Assembly: GCA_038236005.1 (NCBI GenBank)
Contig: JBBSTI010000002.1
Coordinates: 1-58,676 of the forward strand
From: Mycobacteriales bacterium
GTDB taxonomy: Bacteria > Actinomycetota > Actinomycetes > Mycobacteriales > SCTD01
DNA: 58,676 nucleotides
Direction: 5' to 3'
Position numbers and translations under genes: made by a program
Notes under the pieces: generated by a model
Database searches by the model: none
What the model saw: the letters and a program-made list of their open reading frames with translations, nothing else
Told to the model about the DNA's origin: nothing
In this document: positions 3,070 through 36,346 of the stretch, one piece after another
Layout: every line of letters begins with the position of its first letter
Numbering within the stretch: the stretch's first letter is position 1

Positions 3070-3726
3070 TCAGCTGCCGCAGGTCCGCGGGCAGGTGAGC
3101 AGCACGCGGAGCCCGGCAGGCAGCTCGGACAGCGCGGTCACCGAGCCGGGGAAGGCCAGCCGGGCGTCGGTGACCCCGTCCTCGGTGACGACCGACACGC
3201 GCAGGCCGAACCGGTCGAGCGAGACCGGTTCGACGAACAGGGCCCACGGGTCCAGCTGCGAGCGCACGCAGGCCAGCAGGGCGTCGGCGTGCGTCTGGCG
3301 TACGTGACGCACGAGCTCGTCGGACAGCGGTGCCAGCGGGTCCGGCTGCGCGGCGCGATAGTCCGACAGGGCGACCGGCAGCGGGGACCCGCCCAGCTTG
3401 ATCGACACCGGGTCGACGCGGAACCTCAGCCGACCCTCCGGGTCGCGCCCGGGCAGCCGCCTCGACCCGCCGGCCAGGATCGTGGCCGGGTGCCCGGCAG
3501 CGGCGACCGTGAGCGTCGCGAGCGGTCGGCGGAACAGGTCCACCGCGGCCTGGCTCCCGTACCGCAGCGAGACCTGCACCCCGCCGTCACCCAGGTCGTG
3601 CACGGACACCAGCGTCGTCCGCACCGGAGCGGCCCCTCCGCAGGAGGCGCGCCCGTAGGTGTGCAGGGTCCCCACCCGCGACACCGACACCGCGGTCCGG
3701 GCCCGCTCGGCGGCAGAAGGTTCCAT
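3070..3726 (-). CDS. DUF2470-containing, HugZ-like (PNPOx-like split barrel) putative heme-utilisation protein
   Basis: 218-aa ORF with high GC3. The family is recognised from overall sequence only. An iron-box-like site lies directly upstream. Confidence 0.5.
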   Translation of the reverse strand: MEPSAAERARTAVSVSRVGTLHTYGRASCGGAAPVRTTLVSVHDLGDGGVQVSLRYGSQAAVDLFRRPLATLTVAAAGHPATILAGGSRRLPGRDPEGRLRFRVDPVSIKLGGSPLPVALSDYRAAQPDPLAPLSDELVRHVRQTHADALLACVRSQLDPWALFVEPVSLDRFGLRVSVVTEDGVTDARLAFPGSVTALSELPAGLRVLLTCPRTCGS

Positions 3727-3761
3727 CGGTGCTCCTCAGGTCCACTCCCGGGCAGTCCGGG

Positions 3762-3780
3762 TTAGGGCAACCTAACCTAG
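3762..3780. promoter_or_regulatory. Candidate IdeR/DtxR iron box
   Basis: TTAGGGCAACCTAACCTAG matches 14/19 (15/19 on the other strand) of the mycobacterial consensus TTAGGTTAGGCTAACCTAA. It lies 36-54 nt upstream of the ATG at 3726. Confidence 0.5.
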
Positions 3781-25612: not shown

Positions 25613-26299
25613 TCAGCTCGTCCCGCCCGTTGTGGTGCCGTGCTCCACGCACCGGGCCGACCAGCCGGTCGGGAACACCTGCACCACCCGGCGGCGACGG
25701 CACTGGGGGCAGTAGCGGGGCGGCTCCAGCTCGCGGGCCGCCCCGCACCGCTCGTGCCCGGTCAGCGTGAGCGTCTCGCCGCACGCGTCGCAGAACGGCA
25801 CGAGCGCCACCGCGTACGCGTACAGCTGCAGACCCGGCACGGGAGACCAGTCCAGCCACGGCGTCGCCTCGAAACCGGCCCGTAGGTAGATGCTGCGGGC
25901 GGCGTCCATCCCGGCCTGGGTGCACAGCCGCAGCACCCGGCAGCCGTCGGTCCGCGCCCGGTCCAGGCATGCGGCCACCAGGGCGGTCCCCGCGCCGCTG
26001 CCCCGCGCGGCGGGCGCCGTCGCGAGCATCCGCATCACCGCCTCGCCAGGGGAAGCCAGCTCGGCGAGCGGCCCCAGCCTGGTCGCCACGGTCACTGTCC
26101 CGAGCAGGATGTCGTCACCGTCGACCGCCACCAGCACGTCGGCGATGCGCGCCCGGCCGGCGGCGTCGCGCAGCTGCTCGGCGTACGCCTCGTCGCCCCA
26201 GCCGTCCCGCAGGTAGACCTCGGCGACCAACCGGCCTGCGGCGCTCAGCTCGTCGGGTCGGGCCGAGCGGACAGCGAGGCCGGAGATCGGGGTAGGCAC
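25613..26299 (-). CDS. GNAT N-acetyltransferase with a C-terminal Cys-rich zinc-ribbon
   Basis: [11 protein letters not shown] acetyl-CoA motif. The C-terminus carries CDAC..C..CPQC. Confidence 0.7.
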
Positions 26300-26304
26300 C
26301 GGAC

Positions 26305-27165
26305 GTGTCTACCCCTTCGCCCGGTCTTCGGGCGTTGGCGAGAGACGTGGCGCACAGCATCCGCGGGCACGATCTGGTCCTCTACGCCGCCGGGATCACA
26401 TTCTTCGCGGCGATCGGTGCGATCCCGCTCCTGCTGCTCGCAGTGCGCCTGGCCGGCCTGGTCACCGGCGAGGGCACCCTGCTCCGGCTGTCGCAGGACC
26501 TCACCTCGCTGATCCCCGCCAACCTCGGGGCGCGACAGGCTGGCGAACGGCTGGCCGAGGTCGGCACCCGGCTCCCGTGGACGGGGGTGCTCGCGGCGGT
26601 GCTGCCCGGCAGCCTGTACGGCGAGGGGCTGGTGCGGGCCTTCGACCGGCTGTCGGTGCGCGGTGAGCGTGGTCGACGCTCGATCCGGGGGCGGCTCGGC
26701 TCCGCGGTGTTCATCGTGCTCAGCCCGTTCCTGCTGCTGGCCGCGATCCTGCTGGCCGATGCGCTCACCAACGCGCTCGGGGTCGGCAGGGCACCACGAA
26801 TGCTGGGGATCTACCTGGCGTTCCTGTTCCTCTGGCTGGCGGTGAGCCCGCTGCTCGCGCTCGCCTACCGGGCGTTGGCTCCGGAGCGACCGGGCACCCG
26901 AGCGGTCCTCTGGGGGGCGTACGGGACGGGCTCGCTGATCGCCGGGTTCATGCTGGGGTGGGTGCTGTTCCTGTCGATCCGGGTGCCGCTCGAGGCCGCG
27001 TTCGGGGGCTCGGTGCCGCTGGCCGCGGCCGCGGTCAGCATGGGTTGGCTGCTGCTTCTGCACGTGCTCATGCTGGTCGGGTACGTCACCACCCTGCGGC
27101 TGGACGCGCGGGGTGGGCACCCTCGCGGTGCGGTGGTCCGGGCGACCCGGGTGCGCAGGGCCTGA
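26305..27165 (+). CDS. YihY/BrkB-family membrane protein
   Basis: [22 protein letters not shown] is a typical YihY N-terminus. The protein is polytopic. Confidence 0.7.
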
Positions 27166-29726
27166 CGCAGCCCGTCCCACAGTCGCGTGGCGAGCAGTCC
27201 TGCGGCGACGGAGGCGACCAGCACGAGCAGCCGAGGGTCGCCGACGGTCAGGTCCAGAACCTGCCACTGCACCAGGTAGATGAACAGCGAGGCGCTGGCG
27301 ACAGCGCCGAGCGCCGTGCGCAGCAGCGGGAGCCGCCGGGGGAACGGGACCGTCGGGCGCCACACCAGGAGCAGCACGCCGAGCAGGACGACCGCGTCGT
27401 GGCTGGGCCGGCTGAAGAACCCTGGCACCGAGAGGACGGCCACGGCGGTGATCACCATCCGGTGCCGACGTCGGGTCGCCCGGGCGGCGGACCACCCCAG
27501 CACGAACAACCAGAGCACGGCGACGGAGGACTGGGTCTGCGCCGGGCCAGGACCGAGGTCGACGACCCCGATCCGGGGGAGCAGGCCGAGCCCGAGAAGC
27601 AGGACCGGCAGCGCGAACGGGTGCCGCCGCTCGAACCGGTCCACCTGCGGGATCGCCATCAGCACGCTCATGACGATCAGCAGCTGGATCAGGGCTTCGA
27701 GGAACCAGTAGCGCCAGGCGGGGCCGAGGACGTCCGGGCCCAGCCAGGCGTTGAGCTGCAGCACCTGGACGATCCCGACGCCGGGCGTGACGATCGAGGC
27801 GGCGGCGACGATCAGGACCACCGGCGTCACCAGCCGCGTGATCGACCGGGACGTGCCCGAGAGCCGCTCCCGGCGGGACAGGGCGTTGGGCCGGAACCGG
27901 GCGAAGTTGTAGCCCGCCACCGCCAGCAGGGTGTGCGCCCCGCCGAGCAGCGGCGACAGCTTTGCGTGCGACGCGACGACGAGCAGGATGCCGACCGCGC
28001 GGAGCACCACGGTGGTGTCGACCGGCACGTATCGAGACCGAGCCGATGAGCGTCCCGCCTCGCCGGTGGGACCTGCTGCCGTGCCGTCTGAGGCAAGCAG
28101 CGCCTGCAGGCCGCTGACGCTGCGGGTCGGCCAGTCGTCCGGGACGGTCGGCAGCAGGTCCGACAGCCGCAGGCTCACCTCGACGTAGGACAGCGAGTCG
28201 CCCCCGAGCCCGACGAACGTGTCGGTGGGTCCCGCCGGCCTGCCCAGGACGGCGGCATACAGCCCGCGCACCTCGTTGCCGGGCCTCTGGTGCGAGGGGC
28301 CTGCTGTCTCGTCCAGGGTCGCCCGGGCCATGCGGTCGGCGTCGCGCGCGTCGATCTTCCCGTTCACGGTCCGGGGCAGTGCCTCGACCCTCACGGCTCG
28401 CACGGCGTGCACGGGCAGCCCGCTGGCCTGACAGATCGCCTGTCGGGTGGTTCCGACGTCCTGCTCAGCCACCGCCACGAGCCGGCCGTCCAGCAGCCCG
28501 CACCAGGCGGTGATGCCGCGTTCCCGCACCCGGGACGTCACCTCGTCGAGATCGATGCGCAGCCCGAACAGCTTGACCTGACGGCCGGTTCGTCCGACCA
28601 GCTCGAGCATCCCGTCGGGTCGGAGCCGGCCCCGGTCGCCGGTCCTCAGCTCGTGCACCGTCCTGCCGCGCGCCAGGTCGTGCGGGCCGTCCGCGTAGCC
28701 CATCATCACGTTCGGCCCGCGGTAGACCAGCTCCCCGTCCTCGGCCAGCGTCAGCTCGCCGCCGGGCACCGCCACGCCGAGCGCACCGGTGTGGCGAAGC
28801 GCCAGGTGTGGTGGCAGATACGCCATCCGGGCGGTCGCCTCGGTCTGCCCGTACATCACGAACAGCTGCCGACCCTGGTTCGCGCACGCCTGCGCATAAC
28901 GGTGGGCCTGCTCGTCGGGCATCGCGCCGCCGGCCTGCAGGAGCCGCTTCAACGACGGCAGCGCAGACAGCCGACCGTGCAGGAGATCGGTGCGATCGAG
29001 CAGGTCGAAGGTGTAGGGGACCCCGGCGACCGAGCTGACCCGGTGCTCGTGCACGAGGTCCCAGAAGCACCGGTCCACGACCGACAGCTCGGTCAGCACC
29101 AGGCCCGCTCCGGCCATCAGGTGCGAGTGCAGCACGGACAGGCCGAAGCAGTAGGCCATCGGCAGGGTCGTGATGCCGACGTCGTCCCGGCCCAGCTCGA
29201 GGTAGGAGGCGATCGAGCCGGCGTTGGCCAGGACCGCCTCGTACGACAGGCGCACCAGGCGCGGGGAACCGGTCGACCCGGACGTCGTGAGCAGCAGGAC
29301 CAGGTCGGGGTGCAGGTCGTGCACCGTGCCGGCGCGACGCTCGGTCGTCCTCGCCACGCGAAGATCGTCCGGGTCGGTCTGCAGGACCACGTCGGGGTCG
29401 TAGCGGTCGATCCACCGCTGGACGTGCTGCCCGGACGGGACCAGCAGCACGACGTGCCCGGCGCAGATCGCCCCGAGGTAGGCGGCGATCAGCGACACGT
29501 CGTGCGACCCGACGACCAGGACCAGCCGACGGCCGCGGCCCGGCCCGCGATCGTTGTCAAGCCGGGCCGCCGCATCGTCGACACGTCGCGCCAGCTCGCC
29601 GTAGGACACGGTGACGTCACCCTGCACGAGGGCGGTGCGCGAGCCGTGCGCGGCGAGTCGGCGCGTGAGGTCGCTCACCTGGCGGAGCGGGGCGGGGCTT
29701 TCGAGTTGAACCGGCACGCGAAGCAC
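26865..29726 (-). CDS. Fusion of an adenylation domain, a peptidyl carrier domain and a membrane acyltransferase-3 (AT3) domain
   Basis: Adenylation-domain motifs TSGSTGSPR, MYGQTEAT, LRTGDRG, GRQVKLFGLRIDLDEV and NGKIDA. PCP motif GLGGDSLSY (Ser511). AT3-like TM1 motif DTTVVLRAVGILLVVASH followed by about 8 TM helices. The last about 99 aa are antisense to yihY and look like unconstrained read-through. Confidence 0.8.
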   Translation of the reverse strand: MLRVPVQLESPAPLRQVSDLTRRLAAHGSRTALVQGDVTVSYGELARRVDDAAARLDNDRGPGRGRRLVLVVGSHDVSLIAAYLGAICAGHVVLLVPSGQHVQRWIDRYDPDVVLQTDPDDLRVARTTERRAGTVHDLHPDLVLLLTTSGSTGSPRLVRLSYEAVLANAGSIASYLELGRDDVGITTLPMAYCFGLSVLHSHLMAGAGLVLTELSVVDRCFWDLVHEHRVSSVAGVPYTFDLLDRTDLLHGRLSALPSLKRLLQAGGAMPDEQAHRYAQACANQGRQLFVMYGQTEATARMAYLPPHLALRHTGALGVAVPGGELTLAEDGELVYRGPNVMMGYADGPHDLARGRTVHELRTGDRGRLRPDGMLELVGRTGRQVKLFGLRIDLDEVTSRVRERGITAWCGLLDGRLVAVAEQDVGTTRQAICQASGLPVHAVRAVRVEALPRTVNGKIDARDADRMARATLDETAGPSHQRPGNEVRGLYAAVLGRPAGPTDTFVGLGGDSLSYVEVSLRLSDLLPTVPDDWPTRSVSGLQALLASDGTAAGPTGEAGRSSARSRYVPVDTTVVLRAVGILLVVASHAKLSPLLGGAHTLLAVAGYNFARFRPNALSRRERLSGTSRSITRLVTPVVLIVAAASIVTPGVGIVQVLQLNAWLGPDVLGPAWRYWFLEALIQLLIVMSVLMAIPQVDRFERRHPFALPVLLLGLGLLPRIGVVDLGPGPAQTQSSVAVLWLFVLGWSAARATRRRHRMVITAVAVLSVPGFFSRPSHDAVVLLGVLLLVWRPTVPFPRRLPLLRTALGAVASASLFIYLVQWQVLDLTVGDPRLLVLVASVAAGLLATRLWDGLRQALRTRVARTTAPRGCPPRASSRRVVTYPTSMSTCRSSSQPMLTAAAASGTEPPNAASSGTRIDRNSTHPSMNPAISEPVPYAPQRTARVPGRSGANAR

Positions 29727-29751
29727 CCTAACTTAGGGAAGCCTCACTTGA
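29726..29751. promoter_or_regulatory. Palindrome CCCTAAcTTAGGG plus a degenerate iron-box-like 19-mer in the 50-bp divergent region
   Basis: The palindrome spans 29726-29738. TTAGGGAAGCCTCACTTGA (29733-29751) matches 13/19 of the IdeR consensus and 13/19 of the box at 3762. Confidence 0.35.
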
Positions 29752-29776
29752 CCCCTCCCTCGGAACGAGGATCGCC

Positions 29777-30781
29777 GTGCCCCGCCGCACCACACCGCTC
29801 GTGCTGCTCGCCCTGACCCTTGCCCTCACGCTCACCGGCTGCGGCAGCAAGGACGACTCTCTGGTGGTCTACAACGCCCAGAACGGTCGCCTGATGGGCA
29901 CCCTGGTCGACGCCTTCACCCAGCAGACCGGCATCAAGGTCCAGATGCGCAACGGTGGCGACACCGAGCTGGGCAACCAGCTCGTCACCGAGGGCGGCAA
30001 GTCGCCGGCTGACGTGTTCACCACCGAGAACTCGACCGCGATGGCCATGGTCGACCGCGCAGGCCTGTTCACCCCGTTGGAGCCTGCCGCGCTCGAGGGG
30101 GTCGCGCCGCAGAACATCGCGGACGACAAGGGCTGGGTAGGCGTGGCCGCCCGCTCCACGGTCCTGGTCTACAACACCGATCTGGTGAAGGAGAGCGACC
30201 TGCCGGCCTCCATGCTCGACCTGGAGCAGCCGGAGTACAAGGGCAGGTTCGGCTATGCCCCGTCCGGCGCCGACTTCCAGGCGATCGCCTCCGCCGTCTA
30301 TGCCGCCAAGGGCGACGAGGCCGGGCAGGCATTCGTCGACGGGTTGGCCGCGAACGGCAAGGAGTACGCGAACAACATCGCGATCCTCAAGGCGGTCAAC
30401 TCTGGCGAGATCCCGACCGGGATCATCTACCACTACTACTGGTTCCAGGACCAGGCCGACACCGGTGCCGACAGCGACAAGGCTGCGCTGCACTACTTCG
30501 GCAACCAGGACCCCGGTGCCTACCTGTCCGTCGCCGGCGCGGGCGTCCTGGCCTCCAGCCAGAAGCAGGCCGACGCCCAGAAGTTCGTGGCCTTCCTGAC
30601 CAGCCGTAAGGGTCAGGAGGTGCTGGCTCAGAGCAACGACTTCCAGTACGCGATCAACAACGGCGTGTCCTCCAACCCGGTGCTCAAGCCGTTGGCCGAG
30701 CTTGACCCCCCGGTCGTCCCGCTGGGGCGGCTCGACGGTCCGAAGCTGCTGGACGCTTTCCGCGCGGCCGGGATCCTGTGA
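29777..30781 (+). CDS. Fe(3+) ABC transporter substrate-binding lipoprotein (FbpA/AfuA type)
   Basis: Lipobox LTLTGC and a family-1 SBP sequence typical of ferric-binding proteins. Confidence 0.85.
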   Translation: MPRRTTPLVLLALTLALTLTGCGSKDDSLVVYNAQNGRLMGTLVDAFTQQTGIKVQMRNGGDTELGNQLVTEGGKSPADVFTTENSTAMAMVDRAGLFTPLEPAALEGVAPQNIADDKGWVGVAARSTVLVYNTDLVKESDLPASMLDLEQPEYKGRFGYAPSGADFQAIASAVYAAKGDEAGQAFVDGLAANGKEYANNIAILKAVNSGEIPTGIIYHYYWFQDQADTGADSDKAALHYFGNQDPGAYLSVAGAGVLASSQKQADAQKFVAFLTSRKGQEVLAQSNDFQYAINNGVSSNPVLKPLAELDPPVVPLGRLDGPKLLDAFRAAGIL

Positions 30782-30916
30782 CCCGACCTCCGGCCGGGCT
30801 GTGACGTGGCCCGACCTCCGGCGGGCTGTGACGTGGCCCGACCTCCGACCGGGCTGTGACGTGGCCCGACCTCCGGCCGGGCTGTGACGTGGCCCGACCT
30901 CCGGCCGGGCTGTGAC
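30776..30916 (+). repeat. Tandem array of a 28-bp hairpin-forming unit (about 5 copies) between the SBP and permease genes
   Basis: Units ctgtgacgtggcccgacctccggccggg start at 30776 (23 nt, contains the SBP stop), 30799 (27 nt), 30826, 30854 and 30882 (28 nt each). A partial unit starts at 30910. There are no spacers. Confidence 0.95.
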
Positions 30917-30976
30917 AAGGCGGCCGGACCGCCTGAACCCGCCAGAACGTCTGACCCGAAAGAGCGGCTGCCACGC

Positions 30977-32533
30977 ATGAGCGTCACGTCCCGGCGGGCT
31001 GAGGGGACCCCTCGGCTGCTGCTGGTGAGCGCTGCGCTGGTCGCCGCCTTCTGCGTGCTGCCCCTGGTCTACATCGCGCTGGACACCTTCAGCCTGGGCT
31101 GGAGCGCCGCGTACGACCTGATCGTGCGGCCCAAGGTCGGGCAGCTGCTCACGACCACGGTCGCGCTGACCGTCCTCGGCGTGCTGACCAGTGCCATGCT
31201 CGGCACGGCGCTGGCCTTCCTGGTCGCGCGCACCACGCTGCCGGGTCGACCGGTCTGGAACGTGCTGCTGGCCGCCCCGCTGGCGGTCCCAGCCTTCGTC
31301 ACCAGCTATGGCTGGGTGTCCCTCACGCCCGAGGTCGCCAGCTTTCCGGGGGCGCTGCTGGTCCTGACCCTCGCCTACTACCCGCTGGTCTACCTGCCGG
31401 TGCTCGCGACGCTGTCCGGGCTCGACCCGGCGCTGGAGGAGACGGCCCAGGCGCTCGGGCTGAGCCCGGTGCGGATCTTCCTGCGGGTGGTCCTGCCGCA
31501 GCTGCGTCCGGCCCTGCTCGGCGGCGGCCTGCTCGTCGGCCTTCACCTGCTCTCGGAGTACGGCGCGCTGCAGCTGCTCCGGGTGGAGACCTTCACCGTC
31601 GCGATCTTCGACTCCTACCAGTCCTCCTTCGACGGGCCCTCGTCCAGCACGCTGGCGGCCGTGCTGCTCGTGCTCTGCGCGGTGCTGCTCACCGTGGAGC
31701 TGCGCGCCCGCGGGCTCCGGCGATATGCCCGGGTCGGCTCCGGCGCCGCCAGGGAGCAGCAGCGGCAGCTGCTCGGGCGGGGGCTGGTCCCGAGCCTGCT
31801 GAGCGTCGGCGCGGTCGTCGTGCTCGCGCTGGGCGTGCCCGCCTACAGCCTCGGCCGGTGGCTCGTCCTGGGCGGCAGCACACGCTTCCCGGCGGCCGAC
31901 CTGCTCGGGACGACCGTGACCTCGCTGGGCCTCGGGGCGCTCGCGGCTCTCGCCACGACGCTCTGCGCGCTACCGGTGGCCCTGCTCTCGGTCCGCTACC
32001 GGAGCCCGCTGACCAGTGCCCTGGAGCGCACCAGCTATCTGTCCAACGCGCTCCCGGGCATCGTCGTGGCGCTGGCCCTGGTCTCGGTCTCGCTGCGCTT
32101 CCTCTCACCGACCTACCAGACCACCGGCCTGCTGGTCTCGGCGTACGTCCTGCTGTTCCTGCCCCGTTCGGTCATCAGCCTGCGGGCGGCACTCGCGCAG
32201 GCGCCGGTCGAGCTGGACGACGTCGCCCACGGGCTCGGGCTCGGGACGCTCGCCACGCTGCGCCGCGTCACGCTGCCCCTGATCGCCCGGGGGATGGGGG
32301 TCGGTGCCGCGCTGGTGTTCCTCGGCACGGTCACCGAGCTCACCGCCACGCTGCTGCTCGCCCCGCTCGGCACCGCGACGCTCGCGACCGAGTTCTGGGC
32401 GCAGAGCAGCCAGGTGCAGTACGGCGCGGCGGCTCCGTACGCTGTGCTCATGGTCCTCGTGTCTGTACCGGCGACCCTGCTGCTCAGCCGGTCCCCGTCG
32501 CGTCGCGCCCAGAGCGCGGCCCTGCTGCGGTGA
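30977..32533 (+). CDS. Iron ABC transporter permease (two fused permease halves, FbpB type)
   Basis: 518 aa with about 12 TM helices and two EAA-like loops. ATG at 30977 was chosen over the GTG at 30884, which lies inside the repeat. Confidence 0.85.
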   Translation: MSVTSRRAEGTPRLLLVSAALVAAFCVLPLVYIALDTFSLGWSAAYDLIVRPKVGQLLTTTVALTVLGVLTSAMLGTALAFLVARTTLPGRPVWNVLLAAPLAVPAFVTSYGWVSLTPEVASFPGALLVLTLAYYPLVYLPVLATLSGLDPALEETAQALGLSPVRIFLRVVLPQLRPALLGGGLLVGLHLLSEYGALQLLRVETFTVAIFDSYQSSFDGPSSSTLAAVLLVLCAVLLTVELRARGLRRYARVGSGAAREQQRQLLGRGLVPSLLSVGAVVVLALGVPAYSLGRWLVLGGSTRFPAADLLGTTVTSLGLGALAALATTLCALPVALLSVRYRSPLTSALERTSYLSNALPGIVVALALVSVSLRFLSPTYQTTGLLVSAYVLLFLPRSVISLRAALAQAPVELDDVAHGLGLGTLATLRRVTLPLIARGMGVGAALVFLGTVTELTATLLLAPLGTATLATEFWAQSSQVQYGAAAPYAVLMVLVSVPATLLLSRSPSRRAQSAALLR

Positions 32534-33642
32534 CCGGCGCCCTGGCCCTCGTGCTGAGCGCGGTCGACAAGAGCTTCGGCAGCACGCAGGTGCTGCGCGG
32601 CGTCGACCTCGAGGTGCCGGTCGGCAGCCTCACCGCTGTGCTCGGCCCGTCGGGCTGCGGCAAGACGACCCTGCTGCGGCTGGTGGCCGGTTTCGCGGAC
32701 CCGGACGCCGGCACGATCTCGATCGGTGGCCGGACGGTGGTCAGCGCCGGCTCCGACGTGTCCCCTCGACGCCGGGGCGTCGACAGCGTGCCTGGCCGAC
32801 ACAGGGGCGTCGACAGCGTGCCTGCCCGACGCCGGGGCGTCGGGTATGTCCCGCAGGAGGGGGCGCTGTTCCCCCACCTGTCCGTCGCCGACAACATCAT
32901 GTTCGGCCTGCCGAAGGCCGACCGACGCGGACCACGACTGGTCACGCTGCTGGACCTGGTCGGACTGCCAGCGGTGGCGGCGGAGCGCTACCCGCACGAG
33001 CTGTCCGGCGGTCAGCAGCAGCGGGCCGCCCTCGCCCGGGCGCTCGCACCGCAACCGGCCGTGGTCCTGCTCGACGAGCCGTTCTCCGCGCTGGACGCCG
33101 GGCTGCGCGAGGAGACCGGTCGTGCGGTCGCGGGCGTCCTGCGGGCCAGCGGGGCGACCGCTGTGCTGGTCACCCATGACCAGGGTCAGGCGCTGTCGCT
33201 CGCCGACCGGGTCGCGGTGCTCCGGGACGGTGTGCTGGTCCAGGTGGATCATCCGGACGTGCTCTACCGACGGCCGGCCGATCCCGGGGTCGCCGCCTTC
33301 GTCGGGGGCGCGGTGCTGCTCCCCGCCCGGGTCAGCGGGCTGGTGGCCACCTGCGTGCTCGGTGACGTCGCGCTGGTCGAGGCGGCGCCCGAGGGGGAGT
33401 CGCTGCTCCTCGTGCGTCCGGAGCAGCTCGTCCTCGGTGCGGTCGGCGCGCCGGCGCAGGTGCTCGAGGTCTCCTACTTCGGGCACGACGCGTCGGTGCG
33501 GCTCCGGCTGCGGCCCGACGGGCCCGAGGTGCTCGCGCGGGTGTCCGGGCTGACCCTGCCGCGGGTCGGCGACCAGGTGCACGTGTGCGTGCGCGGACCC
33601 GCCCCGGTGTTCCCCCTGCCGCAGCAGGAGGTCCCGGCGTGA
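32530..33642 (+). CDS. Iron ABC transporter ATP-binding protein (FbpC type) carrying an in-frame tandem repeat
   Basis: Walker A GPSGCGKTT, signature LSGGQQQR and Walker B LLDEPFSALD. Its GTG overlaps the permease stop (GTGA). Confidence 0.9.
   Translation: MTGALALVLSAVDKSFGSTQVLRGVDLEVPVGSLTAVLGPSGCGKTTLLRLVAGFADPDAGTISIGGRTVVSAGSDVSPRRRGVDSVPGRHRGVDSVPARRRGVGYVPQEGALFPHLSVADNIMFGLPKADRRGPRLVTLLDLVGLPAVAAERYPHELSGGQQQRAALARALAPQPAVVLLDEPFSALDAGLREETGRAVAGVLRASGATAVLVTHDQGQALSLADRVAVLRDGVLVQVDHPDVLYRRPADPGVAAFVGGAVLLPARVSGLVATCVLGDVALVEAAPEGESLLLVRPEQLVLGAVGAPAQVLEVSYFGHDASVRLRLRPDGPEVLARVSGLTLPRVGDQVHVCVRGPAPVFPLPQQEVPA
32767..32843 (+). repeat. 30-bp tandem repeat (2 full copies plus a 17-nt partial copy) inside fbpC
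   Basis: cgacgccggggcgtcgacagcgtgcctggc at 32767-32796, a second copy at 32797-32826 with 4 mismatches, and a third partial copy from 32827. It encodes RRRGVDSVPG/RHRGVDSVPA/RRRGVGYVPQE. Confidence 0.95.
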
Positions 33643-33821
33643 CCCACCTGCAACCCAACAGCAAGGGCGCCCTCGTCGGGCTCGCGGTCGTGCTGGTCTT
33701 CCACCTGGCCCTGGTTCTCACCGGGCAGGGCGGGTTCAGCACGCCGGTGCTGGCGGGCATCGCGTTCGCTGCGGCCTGCCTGATCGTGTGGAGCGAGTAC
33801 CAGGCCGGTCGCCGGGGGTAG
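33639..33821 (+). CDS. Small two-helix membrane protein (60 aa), translationally coupled to fbpC
   Basis: Its GTG overlaps the fbpC stop (GTGA). The sequence has two hydrophobic segments. No family recognised. Confidence 0.4.
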   Translation: MTHLQPNSKGALVGLAVVLVFHLALVLTGQGGFSTPVLAGIAFAAACLIVWSEYQAGRRG

Positions 33822-33852
33822 TCGCAGCTGCTCGGCGGGGTAGGAGCCGGTC

Positions 33853-34305
33853 ATGCCGAAGACCGCCACCACGACCAGCGTCAGCCGCGAGGACCTGGTC
33901 ACCTTCCTCGCACCACGTCACCACGTCGTCCTGGTGACCGACCGGGCGGACGGGCGCCGGCAGATGTCACCGGTGACGGCGGGCGTCGACGACGACGGGC
34001 GCGTCGTGATCAGCAGCTATCCGTCCCGTGCCAAGGTCGTCAACGCACGGCGCTGCCGGGACGTCTCCCTGCTGGTGCTCTCCGACAACTGGGACGATGC
34101 CTGGGTCCAGGTCGAGGGCACCTGCGAGGTGCTGGACCTGCCGGACGCGCTCGACCCGCTGGTCGACTACTACCGCGCGATCTCCGGCGAGCACCCCGAC
34201 TGGGACGACTACCGCGCGGCGATGACCCGCCAGGGCAAGGTCCTGCTCCGGGTCACACCGGTCTCCTGGGGCCCGGTCGCCACCGGCGGCTTCCCGCCCG
34301 CGTGA
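33853..34305 (+). CDS. PPOX-class F420-dependent oxidoreductase (pyridoxamine 5'-phosphate oxidase-like)
   Basis: 150 aa with a typical split-barrel family pattern (HHVVLVT..DGR..SPV). RBS GGTAGGAG is present. Confidence 0.65.
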   Translation: MPKTATTTSVSREDLVTFLAPRHHVVLVTDRADGRRQMSPVTAGVDDDGRVVISSYPSRAKVVNARRCRDVSLLVLSDNWDDAWVQVEGTCEVLDLPDALDPLVDYYRAISGEHPDWDDYRAAMTRQGKVLLRVTPVSWGPVATGGFPPA

Positions 34306-34634
34306 GCCTGGCCGAGGACGGCGTCCGGTGCGACCACCCGCACGTCGACGCCACGGACTGGGTCGCACGGCGTCGGGCCCGGCTGCTGGCACGGGGCGCC
34401 GGGCAGGTGCTCGCGGTGAGCAGCGGCTGCGCCGTTTCCGGTGCCGGTCGGCACGCCACCCAGCTCGCCGAGGACGCCGCTCGGGCGCTGGCCCGGCTCG
34501 ACGAGGGGCTCGCGACCCGCTGCGAGGTGTGCTTCGAGGTGCTGAGCCTGGAGCGGCTGGACGCCGCGCCCGCCGCCGTCCGGTGCACCCGGTGCGCGCG
34601 CCCCTACGTCGTCGACACCCGCTGGTGCCGCTGA
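34302..34634 (+). CDS. TraR/DksA-type C4 zinc-finger protein
   Basis: CEVC-x17-CTRC finger near the C-terminus. Its GTG overlaps the preceding stop. Confidence 0.5.
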   Translation: MSLAEDGVRCDHPHVDATDWVARRRARLLARGAGQVLAVSSGCAVSGAGRHATQLAEDAARALARLDEGLATRCEVCFEVLSLERLDAAPAAVRCTRCARPYVVDTRWCR

Positions 34635-35251: not shown

Positions 35252-36346
35252 TCACAGCGTCTCGGCGAGGCCCTTGAGCGGCATCTTGAGGTCGGCGAGC
35301 ATGTCGAGGTCGGAGGTTGCCGGACGTCCCAGCGTCGTCAGGTAGTTGCCGACGATCACCGCGTTGATCCCGCCCAGCATGCCGTCGCGGGCCAGGTCAC
35401 CGAACGTGAGCTCGCGACCTCCCGCGAAGCGCAGGATGGTGCGCGGCAGCACCAGCCGGAAGGTGGCGACGGCGCGCAGCGCGTCGTCGGCCGACATGAC
35501 CGGGCGGTCGCCGAACGGCGTGCCGGGGCGGGGGTTGAGAAAGTTCAGCGGCACCTCGTCCGGGTCTAGCGACGCGAGCTGCACGGCCAGCTCGGCCCGC
35601 TGAGCGAGGCTCTCTCCCATGCCGAGGATGCCTCCGCAGCAGACCTCCATGCCGGCGTCCCGAATCATCTCCAGGGTGCTCCAGCGCTCCTCCCAGGAGT
35701 GCGTGGTCACCACCTGGTCGAAGTAGGAGCGGGCGGTCTCCAGGTTGTGGTTGTAGCGGTGCACACCGGCGGCCACCAGCCGGTCCACCTGCTCCTGGGT
35801 GAGCATCCCGAGCGAGCAGGCGACCTGGATGTCGACCGCCTCGCGGATCGCCTTCACGCCCTGCTCGACCTGGACCATCAGCCGCTCGTCCGGACCGCGG
35901 ACGGCGGCGACGATGCAGAACTCGGTCGCGCCGGTGGCACGGGTCTCGACCGCGGCCTGGACCAAGGACGGGATGTCCAGCCAGGCCGCGCGCACGGGGG
36001 AGGCGAACAGCCCGCTCTGCGAGCAGAAGTGGCAGTCCTCCGGGCAGCCGCCGGTCTTCAGGCTGATGATGCCCTCGACCTCGACCTCCGGCCCGCAGTG
36101 CTTCACCCGCACCTCGTGGGCGAGCTGGAGCAGCCCAGGCAGGTGTTCGTCCCCGAGCTGCAGGCACGCGAGCGCCTGTGCCTGGTCCAGGCCGACCCCG
36201 CGCTGGAGGACCTGCTCACGGGCGACGGCGAGCACCTCGGGCAGATCTGCCCGGGTGTCGTCGGGAAAGAGGTCAGGGTCGGGCCGCAGCGAGGTCACCG
36301 GGGCAGTCTGCCAGCCGGGAGCGGGTCCTCGTGGCTGCTCGAGCAT
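35252..36346 (-). CDS. bioB: Biotin synthase (radical SAM)
   Basis: [11 protein letters not shown] radical-SAM cluster motif in a full-length BioB-like sequence. Confidence 0.95.

Follow-up and report, generated by a model that had tools for sequence, protein, structure and literature searches.

A widespread adenylation–carrier–AT3 fusion protein with a strong genomic link to ferric-iron uptake in Actinobacteria

Introduction

Why would a membrane acyltransferase carry its own acid-activating enzyme and carrier on the same polypeptide, and why is its gene found beside a ferric-iron importer? Both questions are raised by a 58,676-nucleotide stretch of DNA from a Mycobacteriales bacterium (GenBank assembly GCA_038236005.1, contig JBBSTI010000002.1, positions 1 to 58,676; hereafter the window), in which one long open reading frame (ORF) on the minus strand encodes an adenylation (A) domain, a peptidyl carrier protein (PCP) and a membrane domain of the AT3 acyltransferase family. 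The analysis reported here confirms this A-PCP-AT3 fusion as a real feature of the window, identifies it as a member of a real, widespread and uncharacterised protein family, and points to carrier-protein-dependent transmembrane acylation with a strong, previously unreported link to the uptake of ferric iron.

Architecture of the fusion protein

A preliminary description of the window had read the ORF as a single chain of adenylation, carrier and AT3 parts. This reading is borne out by Pfam and by more than 100 homologues, and all of the motifs that it quoted are found in the window protein at the residues given for them. The parts of the ORF are as follows.

26865–29726, minus strand: whole A-PCP-AT3 ORF, 953 codons from the GTG at 29726, plus stop codon
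29717, minus strand: alternative GTG start chosen by the gene caller, giving the 950-residue protein P0001
28332–29666, minus strand: ANL adenylation domain, residues 21–465, with motifs A3, A5, A7, A8 and A10
28083–28280, minus strand: peptidyl/acyl carrier domain, residues 483–548, with GGDSL at 508–512
27132–28031, minus strand: AT3 (Acyl_transf_3, transmembrane acyltransferase or TmAT fold) membrane domain, residues 566–865, about ten helices
26868–27122, minus strand: C-terminal tail, residues 869–953, predicted to be disordered and antisense to the 3' end of a YihY/BrkB gene

The N-terminal part has the core motifs of the ANL superfamily including the catalytic lysine of A10, i.e., A3 (TSGSTGSPR, residues 148–156), A5 (YGQTE, 292–296), A7 (TGD, 362–364), A8 (GRTGRQVKLFGLRI, 378–391) and A10 (NGKID, 455–459, with Lys457), and is matched by the AMP-binding family (Pfam PF00501) with an E-value of 7e-43. 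In the carrier domain that follows, the predicted attachment site for phosphopantetheine is Ser511 of GGDSL (codon 28194–28196); Gly509 to Leu512 (G-D-S-L), including Ser511, are invariant in 109 sequences and Gly508 is nearly so. The PP-binding family (PF00550) scores 21.6 bits in the window protein, against a cut-off of 20.8, and matches 19 of 20 aligned homologues.

The membrane domain displays the R-X10-H motif RAVGILLVVASH at residues 576–587, which runs from Arg576 to His587 (codon 27966–27968), and both of these residues are invariant across the 109 sequences. An R-X10-H motif in transmembrane helix 1 is absolutely conserved in AT3 enzymes (PMC9833829). The AT3 hallmark with His587 in the preliminary description is thereby upheld, whereas its count of about eight transmembrane segments gives way to a prediction of about ten. 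Some 30 invariant residues are spread over the ten AT3 helices in the homologue alignment, and an arginine cluster, RRxRxRxxLRSxAR, is conserved at the cytoplasmic start of helix 3, where the exact RXXR spacing is not kept. In the window protein itself Acyl_transf_3 (PF01757) scores 28.3 bits (E-value 1e-6), below the cut-off of 31 bits, and the same family matches all 20 aligned homologues (best E-value 2.7e-14), so that the AT3 assignment is solid at the family level. NCBIfam has no model that covers the PCP or AT3 parts.

The lower bound of 27166 formerly given for the ORF is wrong: the interval 27166–29726 is not a multiple of three, and the reading frame is open to 26865, with the stop codon at 26865–26867. 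The ORF overlaps by 300 nucleotides (26865–27165) with the 3' end of the convergent YihY/BrkB gene at 26305–27165 on the plus strand, which encodes a genuine membrane protein (PF03631 at 67 bits). Tail residues 869–953 are modelled with low confidence (predicted local distance difference test, pLDDT, of about 30 in AlphaFold2), are missing in most homologues, and are present only in the window protein and its closest relatives P0002 and P0003; because of this recurrence we regard the extension as a lineage-specific read-through tail and not as a sequencing artefact. At the locus of the closest relative (L001) the same over-run is seen, and the gene caller has dropped the YihY gene there.

Occurrence and conservation

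A look-up of the window protein itself returned no existing record. Its relatives are numerous. The best 120 matches of the first homologue search are all 820–960 residues long with the same domains, and more than 100 full-length homologues from many genera retain the same continuous architecture at 44–69% identity. The family is large; its members occur in Streptomyces, Micromonospora, Frankia, Kineococcus, Arthrobacter, Nocardioides, and environmental Mycobacterium, Nocardia and Rhodococcus, and are named merely "AMP-binding protein" or "acyl-CoA synthetase" in databases. Alphaproteobacteria also hold full-length homologues, at 33–37% identity.

With the AT3 part as query against 1.84 billion cluster representatives, counted at 50% identity, 268 clusters were retrieved at E ≤ 1e-30 and 719 at E ≤ 1e-10. 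Long matches have the AT3 domain at about residues 540–860. Eight short matches were inspected: six are truncated gene calls whose start is still the GGDSL region, in P0161 the cut falls immediately ahead of the AT3 domain, and the eighth is a long read-through ORF. The inspected members thus all fit an AT3 clade that always follows a PCP.

Full-text literature searches found no publication describing the A-PCP-AT3 architecture, and the gene is absent from the list in the paper on the DmdR1 regulon of S. coelicolor. A review of AT3 enzymes gives AT3-only, AT3-SGNH and AT3-racemase forms, and argues for acyl-CoA and against a carrier protein as donor (PMC9558356). The A-PCP-AT3 protein belongs to the AT3 family by motif, fold and family-level hidden Markov model evidence, but its putative donor type and its fusion are not described for that family.

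Predicted fold

The AlphaFold2 model of the whole protein, built with 109 homologues, has a mean pLDDT of 85.4 and is confident across all three domains, with carrier-domain helices at residues 482–545. A Foldseek search with the whole protein gave matches only to the A domain, which superposes best on the thioester-forming ANL structures PltF-PltL, MenE and LgrA (E-values 1e-20 to 1e-22), and the membrane part (residues 555–870) was therefore modelled separately. The resulting AT3 model (pLDDT 94.9, predicted template modelling score 0.91) comprises about ten helices, in what appears to be the ten-helix, pore-type core of the TmAT fold. Its sole confident match in the PDB is human HGSNAT with acetyl-CoA (probability 0.99, TMq 0.43); no AT3 structure is among the matches of this fold search. 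HGSNAT and AT3 proteins were united in the TmAT fold by a 2025 paper (PMC12423673).

An iron box in the divergent promoter

The preliminary description had placed the gene divergently from an Fe3+ ABC operon across only 50 bp, with an iron-box-like palindrome shared between the two. The gap is indeed 50 bp (29727–29776), and the element is present within it.

29733–29751, read on the minus strand: predicted IdeR/DmdR-type iron box TTAGGGAAGCCTCACTTGA in the 50-bp divergent intergenic region, five mismatches in 19 positions

The window box differs by one base from that of the closest relative. A scan of the intergenic region for sigma-70 promoters and terminators found nothing.

How general this element is was judged on orthologous loci by scanning both strands for the 19-bp IdeR/DmdR consensus TTAGGTTAGGCTAACCTAA with up to five mismatches, a box being counted if it lies upstream within 300 bp of the gene or, at loci where the ABC genes precede it, of the binding-protein gene that leads them. 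Predicted boxes are found in the promoters of 36 of the 44 actinobacterial loci, versus not a single match in the remaining 762 kb of the same loci, which places the A-PCP-AT3 gene in a DtxR-family iron regulon across the phylum; as judged from these promoters, it is a member of the IdeR/DmdR iron regulon in Actinobacteria. Boxes also occur where ABC genes are not adjacent (L006, L012, L013, L015, L018, L021, L039 and L083), and the one in L039 has a single mismatch. Together with the true Fe3+ binding protein next door and the retention of the importer in four gene orders (see below), the box makes the link to iron, which the preliminary description had only thought conceivable for expression or acquisition, the strongest signal of the locus.

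Outside Actinobacteria the iron evidence is thinner. In Kiloniella sp. (L050, 7866–15677) genes for imelysin, a di-haem oxidoreductase, a second imelysin and a DUF1513 protein come directly after an alpha-proteobacterial full-length homologue, a string that we take to be a proposed iron-uptake cluster; the metagenome scan yielded no second case of this neighbourhood. A Fur-like palindrome, GATTGATTATCAATA, lies 54 bp upstream of the Kiloniella homologue; it is weak and was not used as support. The same applies to a TGA-N9-TCA (RirA-like) element that Ensifer and Rhizobium (L052 and L077) share at -57 and -61, with GGA(A)TTATA after it; the motif is of low information and comes from two related Rhizobiaceae. 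In the window, a second IdeR-like box, CCGGGTTAGGGCAACCTAACCTAG, at 3757–3780 consists of two overlapping matches with five mismatches, 30–55 bp upstream of a minus-strand ORF (3070–3726) that has no NCBIfam match.

Linkage to ferric-iron import genes

The divergent operon encodes the three components of an Fe3+ importer.

29777–30781, plus strand: SfuA/YfuA-type Fe3+ binding lipoprotein, lipobox LTGC, His-Tyr-Tyr motif kept
30884–32533, plus strand: fused two-domain ABC permease (SfuB/FbpB type), likely true start near 30977 (MSVTSRR)
32530–33642, plus strand: ABC ATPase with TOBE_2 domain (SfuC/FbpC type)

The binding protein matches the sequences of the SfuA/YfuA crystal structures with an E-value of 1.6e-98 (SfuA, 1xvy), and HitA/FbpA with 1e-55 to 1e-73. 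The His-Tyr-Tyr motif, Glu59 and Asp141 among the SfuA ligands are kept. By its close similarity and its adjacent tyrosine ligands it falls within the FbpA/SfuA group as a true Fe3+ binding protein, in agreement with the Fe3+ ABC operon of the preliminary description. The iron-ligand His11 of SfuA is replaced by Asn in the binding proteins of the window and of L001; His occupies this position in SfuA, YfuA and most actinobacterial orthologues.

In a neighbourhood survey of 84 loci (one genome per species), searched by tblastn with the three ABC proteins of the window, the importer directly adjoins the A-PCP-AT3 gene in most actinobacterial loci, in four arrangements.

Divergent: window, Streptomyces, Micromonospora, Phytohabitans
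ABC genes upstream on the same strand, with the ATPase stop codon overlapping the A-PCP-AT3 start: Mycobacterium, Lentzea, Arthrobacter
ABC genes downstream on the same strand: Nocardioides, Georgenia, Janibacter, Citricoccus
Convergent: Agromyces, Microbacterium

Two more operonic cases are found in Frankia and Glutamicibacter, and a metagenome scan added at least 12 further loci with an adjoining importer. When every ORF in 54 full-length loci was clustered all-against-all, the binding protein was found in 29 of the 54 loci and the permease likewise; the FbpA-type importer is the only conserved neighbour, with the small exception of an Sfp-type phosphopantetheinyl transferase that is the divergent neighbour in five loci. 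The partner binding proteins belong to three FbpA sequence classes that have only the His-Tyr-Tyr motif in common, which indicates that the association is with FbpA-type iron import generally and not with a single orthologue.

Several features surrounding the operon were recorded. In Rhodococcus chondri (L087, 1940–6367) a DrrAB-like ABC-2 exporter precedes the homologue instead of an Fe3+ importer; this homologue has no AT3 match on record and may be a diverged sub-branch. Between the binding-protein and permease genes of the window, a 28-bp unit, GTGGCCCGACCTCCGGCCGGGCTGTGAC, occurs in five tandem copies with 95% match at 30778–30916; the two genes are almost contiguous in L001, hence the array is specific to the window genome. 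Inside the ATPase gene a 30-bp in-frame tandem repeat (2.5 copies, 32767–32842) duplicates the peptide RRRGVDSVPG just before the Q-loop region. Downstream of the ATPase gene (33585–34634) are three ORFs: a small one for a membrane protein of two helices, one for a PPOX-class oxidoreductase that is F420-dependent (TIGR03618, 106 bits), and a Cys-rich one of 110 residues; the ORF at 33585–33821 overlaps the 3' end of the ATPase gene, and the same set of three is found in L001 and not in other genera. The whole iron locus is situated, in the window as in L001, between a minus-strand gene for a GNAT domain fused to the biotin-synthase auxiliary protein BsaP (25613–26299; 80.6 bits, cut-off 39) and a minus-strand ORF at 35252–36346 that occupies the position of a syntenic Radical_SAM/BATS (BioB-type) gene in L001, a likeness by position alone.

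Acyl donor and acceptor

Alignment with LgrA places Gly195, in a YCFGLS motif, at the position of the Asp235 that binds the amino group of amino-acid substrates. The glycine is invariant in the family (YC(Y/F)GLS), which makes a canonical α-amino acid an unlikely substrate; the NRPS amino-acid adenylation model TIGR01733 scores 138 bits against a cut-off of 317. Other pocket positions are bulky (Leu, Leu, Tyr, Met, Arg), and the Stachelhaus-type positions read roughly G-L-L-Y-T/L-A-M-A-R-K, including an invariant Arg. A dicarboxylate substrate, considered on account of this Arg, was rejected, since A-only relatives in flagellin-glycan islands and elsewhere have these residues too. The shared pocket defines a clade of acid–ACP (acyl carrier protein) ligases for glycan decoration, but no particular acid. 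The closest A-only relatives are found in Marinomonas atlantica (L056, 2305–12524), in a Maf, NeuB, GNAT, ACP, SDR, A, LuxE, LuxC, E1 string that resembles an island for flagellin/nonulosonic-acid modification, with an ACP-dependent branch for acylation that is uncharacterised.

Two distant full-length homologues are located among genes for polysaccharide synthesis. In L093 the gene order is GT2, pyruvyl transferase, A-PCP-AT3, GT2, GH10 and Wzy, and in Asticcacaulis (L045) two GT2 genes, a GT25 gene and a Wzx flippase gene lie beside the homologue. Such clusters provide independent support for the acylation of exported glycans, and support glycan acylation as the generic chemistry of the architecture.

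The PCP fusion of the AT3 clade argues for a tethered donor instead of free acyl-CoA. Together with the Sfp-type phosphopantetheinyl transferase in five loci and the homologues in polysaccharide clusters, it makes carrier-protein-fed acyl transfer across the membrane the most economical mechanism. Of the acyl- or aminoacyl-S-PCP donor proposed in the preliminary description, the tethered acyl group is accordingly retained, whereas an aminoacyl group is unlikely in view of the glycine at the Asp235 position.

Proposed function

We propose that iron starvation induces the A-PCP-AT3 protein, that the protein is a transmembrane acyltransferase fed by its PCP, and that by acylating an acceptor outside the cytoplasm it aids Fe3+ uptake together with the adjacent importer; to this proposal we give even chances. 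Upon iron limitation, IdeR/DmdR would leave the box in the 50-bp divergent promoter, and both the sfuABC-like operon and the A-PCP-AT3 gene would be expressed. The ANL domain would adenylate a carboxylic acid, probably a small one that lacks an α-amino group, and the acid would be loaded as a thioester onto the phosphopantetheine arm of Ser511. The arm may then enter the AT3 pore at its cytoplasmic cavity, replacing the pantetheine that acyl-CoA would supply. Arg576 would hold the phosphate, and the transfer would be catalysed by His587 from its place at the outer end of helix 1. The acyl group would end up on an acceptor outside the cytoplasm, for which a hydroxyl group of a glycopolymer of the cell envelope is the likeliest candidate, and this modification might help to capture or solubilise Fe3+ or to hand it over to the FbpA-type lipoprotein. 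Of this scheme, the domain architecture, the catalytic motifs, the place in the iron regulon and the genomic coupling to the Fe3+ importer are shown, whereas we infer where and in which direction the acyl group moves, that a glycan accepts it, and how iron uptake benefits.

Several observations weigh against this proposal. An Fe3+ importer is missing next to the gene in about 15 of the 44 actinobacterial loci and in every alpha-proteobacterial locus, the window iron box is among the weaker ones with its five mismatches to the consensus, the Pfam AT3 score of the window protein is 2.7 bits under the cut-off, and neither an SGNH domain nor any other periplasmic partner is present. The pocket signature (YxYGLS, VMYGQTEATAR) is common to A-only relatives in unrelated glycan loci and is thus uninformative with regard to iron specifically; in keeping with the preliminary description, neither substrate nor acceptor can be read from the sequence. 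Furthermore, SfuA-type proteins need no organic co-ligand, hence the need for an acyl product is not obvious.

Among the alternatives, the one that survives best is that the protein is a minimal synthetase and exporter of a metallophore or co-ligand: A-PCP would load a chelating acid and the AT3 pore would release it outside, to water or a small soluble nucleophile, as a diffusible low-affinity Fe3+ ligand or as a synergistic anion for the FbpA-type protein. The IdeR control and the coupling to the Fe3+ ABC importer fit this explanation. So do the binding proteins of Streptomyces, Micromonospora and Lentzea, which keep His-Tyr-Tyr only and have lost the His, Glu and Asp ligands, a pattern typical of anion-dependent FbpA classes. 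SfuA-class proteins such as that of the window are, however, anion-independent. The lack of any other conserved biosynthetic gene nearby is also in its favour, and implies that the acid would have to be a common metabolite. Conversely, spending ATP and a thioester merely on the export of an acid is uneconomical, the distant homologues lie in polysaccharide clusters, and the characterised AT3 enzymes in the reviews consulted acylate sugar-containing acceptors (mostly envelope glycans, also glycosylated antibiotics), none of them releasing the acyl group to water or a free small nucleophile. On balance we consider release of a soluble ligand unlikely, at roughly one chance in five.

Slightly less probable again is that the protein remodels envelope charge or permeability in the manner of Dlt, within a general iron-starvation response and with no direct role in feeding the importer. 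The occurrence of iron boxes at loci without ABC genes, the parallel with DltA/DltC/DltB, and the homologues in polysaccharide loci, where the chemistry is not intrinsically tied to iron, can all be explained in this way. What this explanation does not account for is that adjacency to an FbpA-type importer survives four rearrangements and three binding-protein classes, and that the ATPase stop codon overlaps the A-PCP-AT3 start in several genera; such retention points to a specific functional partnership rather than to mere co-regulation.

We regard it as improbable that the AT3 domain works from the cytoplasm or is only a membrane anchor, with a lipid or an imported compound inside the cell receiving the acyl group. 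Models for PglI and TmaT do place acylation in the cytoplasm, although the review doubts this (PMC9558356), and the Rhodococcus gene in L087 follows an ABC-2 exporter and not an importer. The invariant R-X10-H motif and the HGSNAT-like pore fold are, however, hallmarks of transmembrane transfer, and a mere anchor has no need of some 30 invariant residues over ten helices. Finally, an artefact by frameshift fusion of separate genes or by chance adjacency, suggested by the 300-nucleotide over-run of the neighbouring gene and by the marginal AT3 and PP-binding scores of the window sequence, is refuted by the full-length homologues with the same architecture and by a model that is confident across the three domains, the over-run being confined to a tail that recurs in P0002 and P0003.

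Within the proposed role in acylation and iron uptake, a more specific and distinctly more tentative possibility is a siderophore-independent route of Fe3+ capture at the actinobacterial envelope, in which the IdeR-controlled enzyme would thread a carrier-tethered chelating acid through the AT3 pore, either decorating a wall glycopolymer or releasing the acid, and so provide an iron site or co-ligand for the FbpA-type lipoprotein. If this were true, no AT3/TmAT enzyme before it would have had a carrier protein as donor, and iron acquisition would gain a new class of component. How "free" Fe3+ is supplied to FbpA-type importers in Gram-positive Actinobacteria is unexplained, and an IdeR-controlled partner enzyme is a testable candidate. 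More generally, a clade of AT3 domains invariably joined to an adenylation-carrier pair would demonstrate that a protein-tethered phosphopantetheine arm can enter the AT3/TmAT pore, and a tethered donor would extend the acyl groups at the cell surface past the set that exists as CoA esters.

Comparison with known systems

The preliminary description had likened the protein to the Dlt and AlmEFG pathways, with a different transferase family and a single chain, and this likeness stands. As in the Dlt system (DltA, DltC, the MBOAT protein DltB, and DltD), which D-alanylates teichoic acids, an ANL ligase would load a phosphopantetheinyl carrier, from which a polytopic membrane acyltransferase that uses a catalytic His would move the acyl group through the membrane onto a polymer of the envelope. 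In contrast to Dlt, all parts of A-PCP-AT3 are on one chain, the membrane part is AT3/TmAT and not MBOAT, there is no DltD/SGNH partner (ORF clustering of the loci found no DltD-like neighbour), the Asp for binding the amino group is missing from the A domain, and control is by an iron repressor. The A domain scores only 72 bits with the DltA models, whose cut-offs are 476 and 560. AlmEFG, which transfers glycine onto lipid A in Vibrio cholerae, similarly uses an adenylating enzyme and a carrier to feed an inner-membrane acyltransferase that modifies the envelope, but consists of three proteins with an amino-acid substrate, and AlmG is of the lysophospholipid acyltransferase family and acts on lipid A. 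Because the DltA models are far below their cut-offs, the transferase is AT3 and neither MBOAT nor lysophospholipid acyltransferase, and DltD is lacking, A-PCP-AT3 is not a member of either system.

With the AT3 enzymes OafA/OafB, OatA, Oac, IcaC, CmmA and TmaT the protein shares PF01757, the R-X10-H motif in helix 1, the core of about ten helices, the basic residues at the cytoplasmic face of helix 3, and a pore that is expected to take the pantetheine arm. These enzymes use free acyl-CoA (PMC9558356), whereas the donor of A-PCP-AT3 is putatively PCP-tethered. Their fusions are to a C-terminal SGNH domain or alanine racemase, as opposed to the N-terminal A-PCP and the absence of SGNH in the present family.

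The neighbouring operon, with its fused permease and TOBE-containing ATPase, is a member of the SfuABC/YfuABC/FbpABC importers. It differs from the Gram-negative SfuABC in that the binding protein is a lipoprotein of a Gram-positive organism with the His ligand replaced by Asn; we know of no A-PCP-AT3 partner of the Gram-negative systems. The union of an activating enzyme and an envelope-modifying transferase on one chain has parallels in E. coli Aas (acyl-ACP synthetase and membrane acyltransferase) and mycobacterial LysX (lysyl-tRNA synthetase and MprF), however, the transferase is of PlsC type in Aas and MprF in LysX, the acceptors of both are lipids, and the activated group is carried by free ACP in Aas and by tRNA in LysX.

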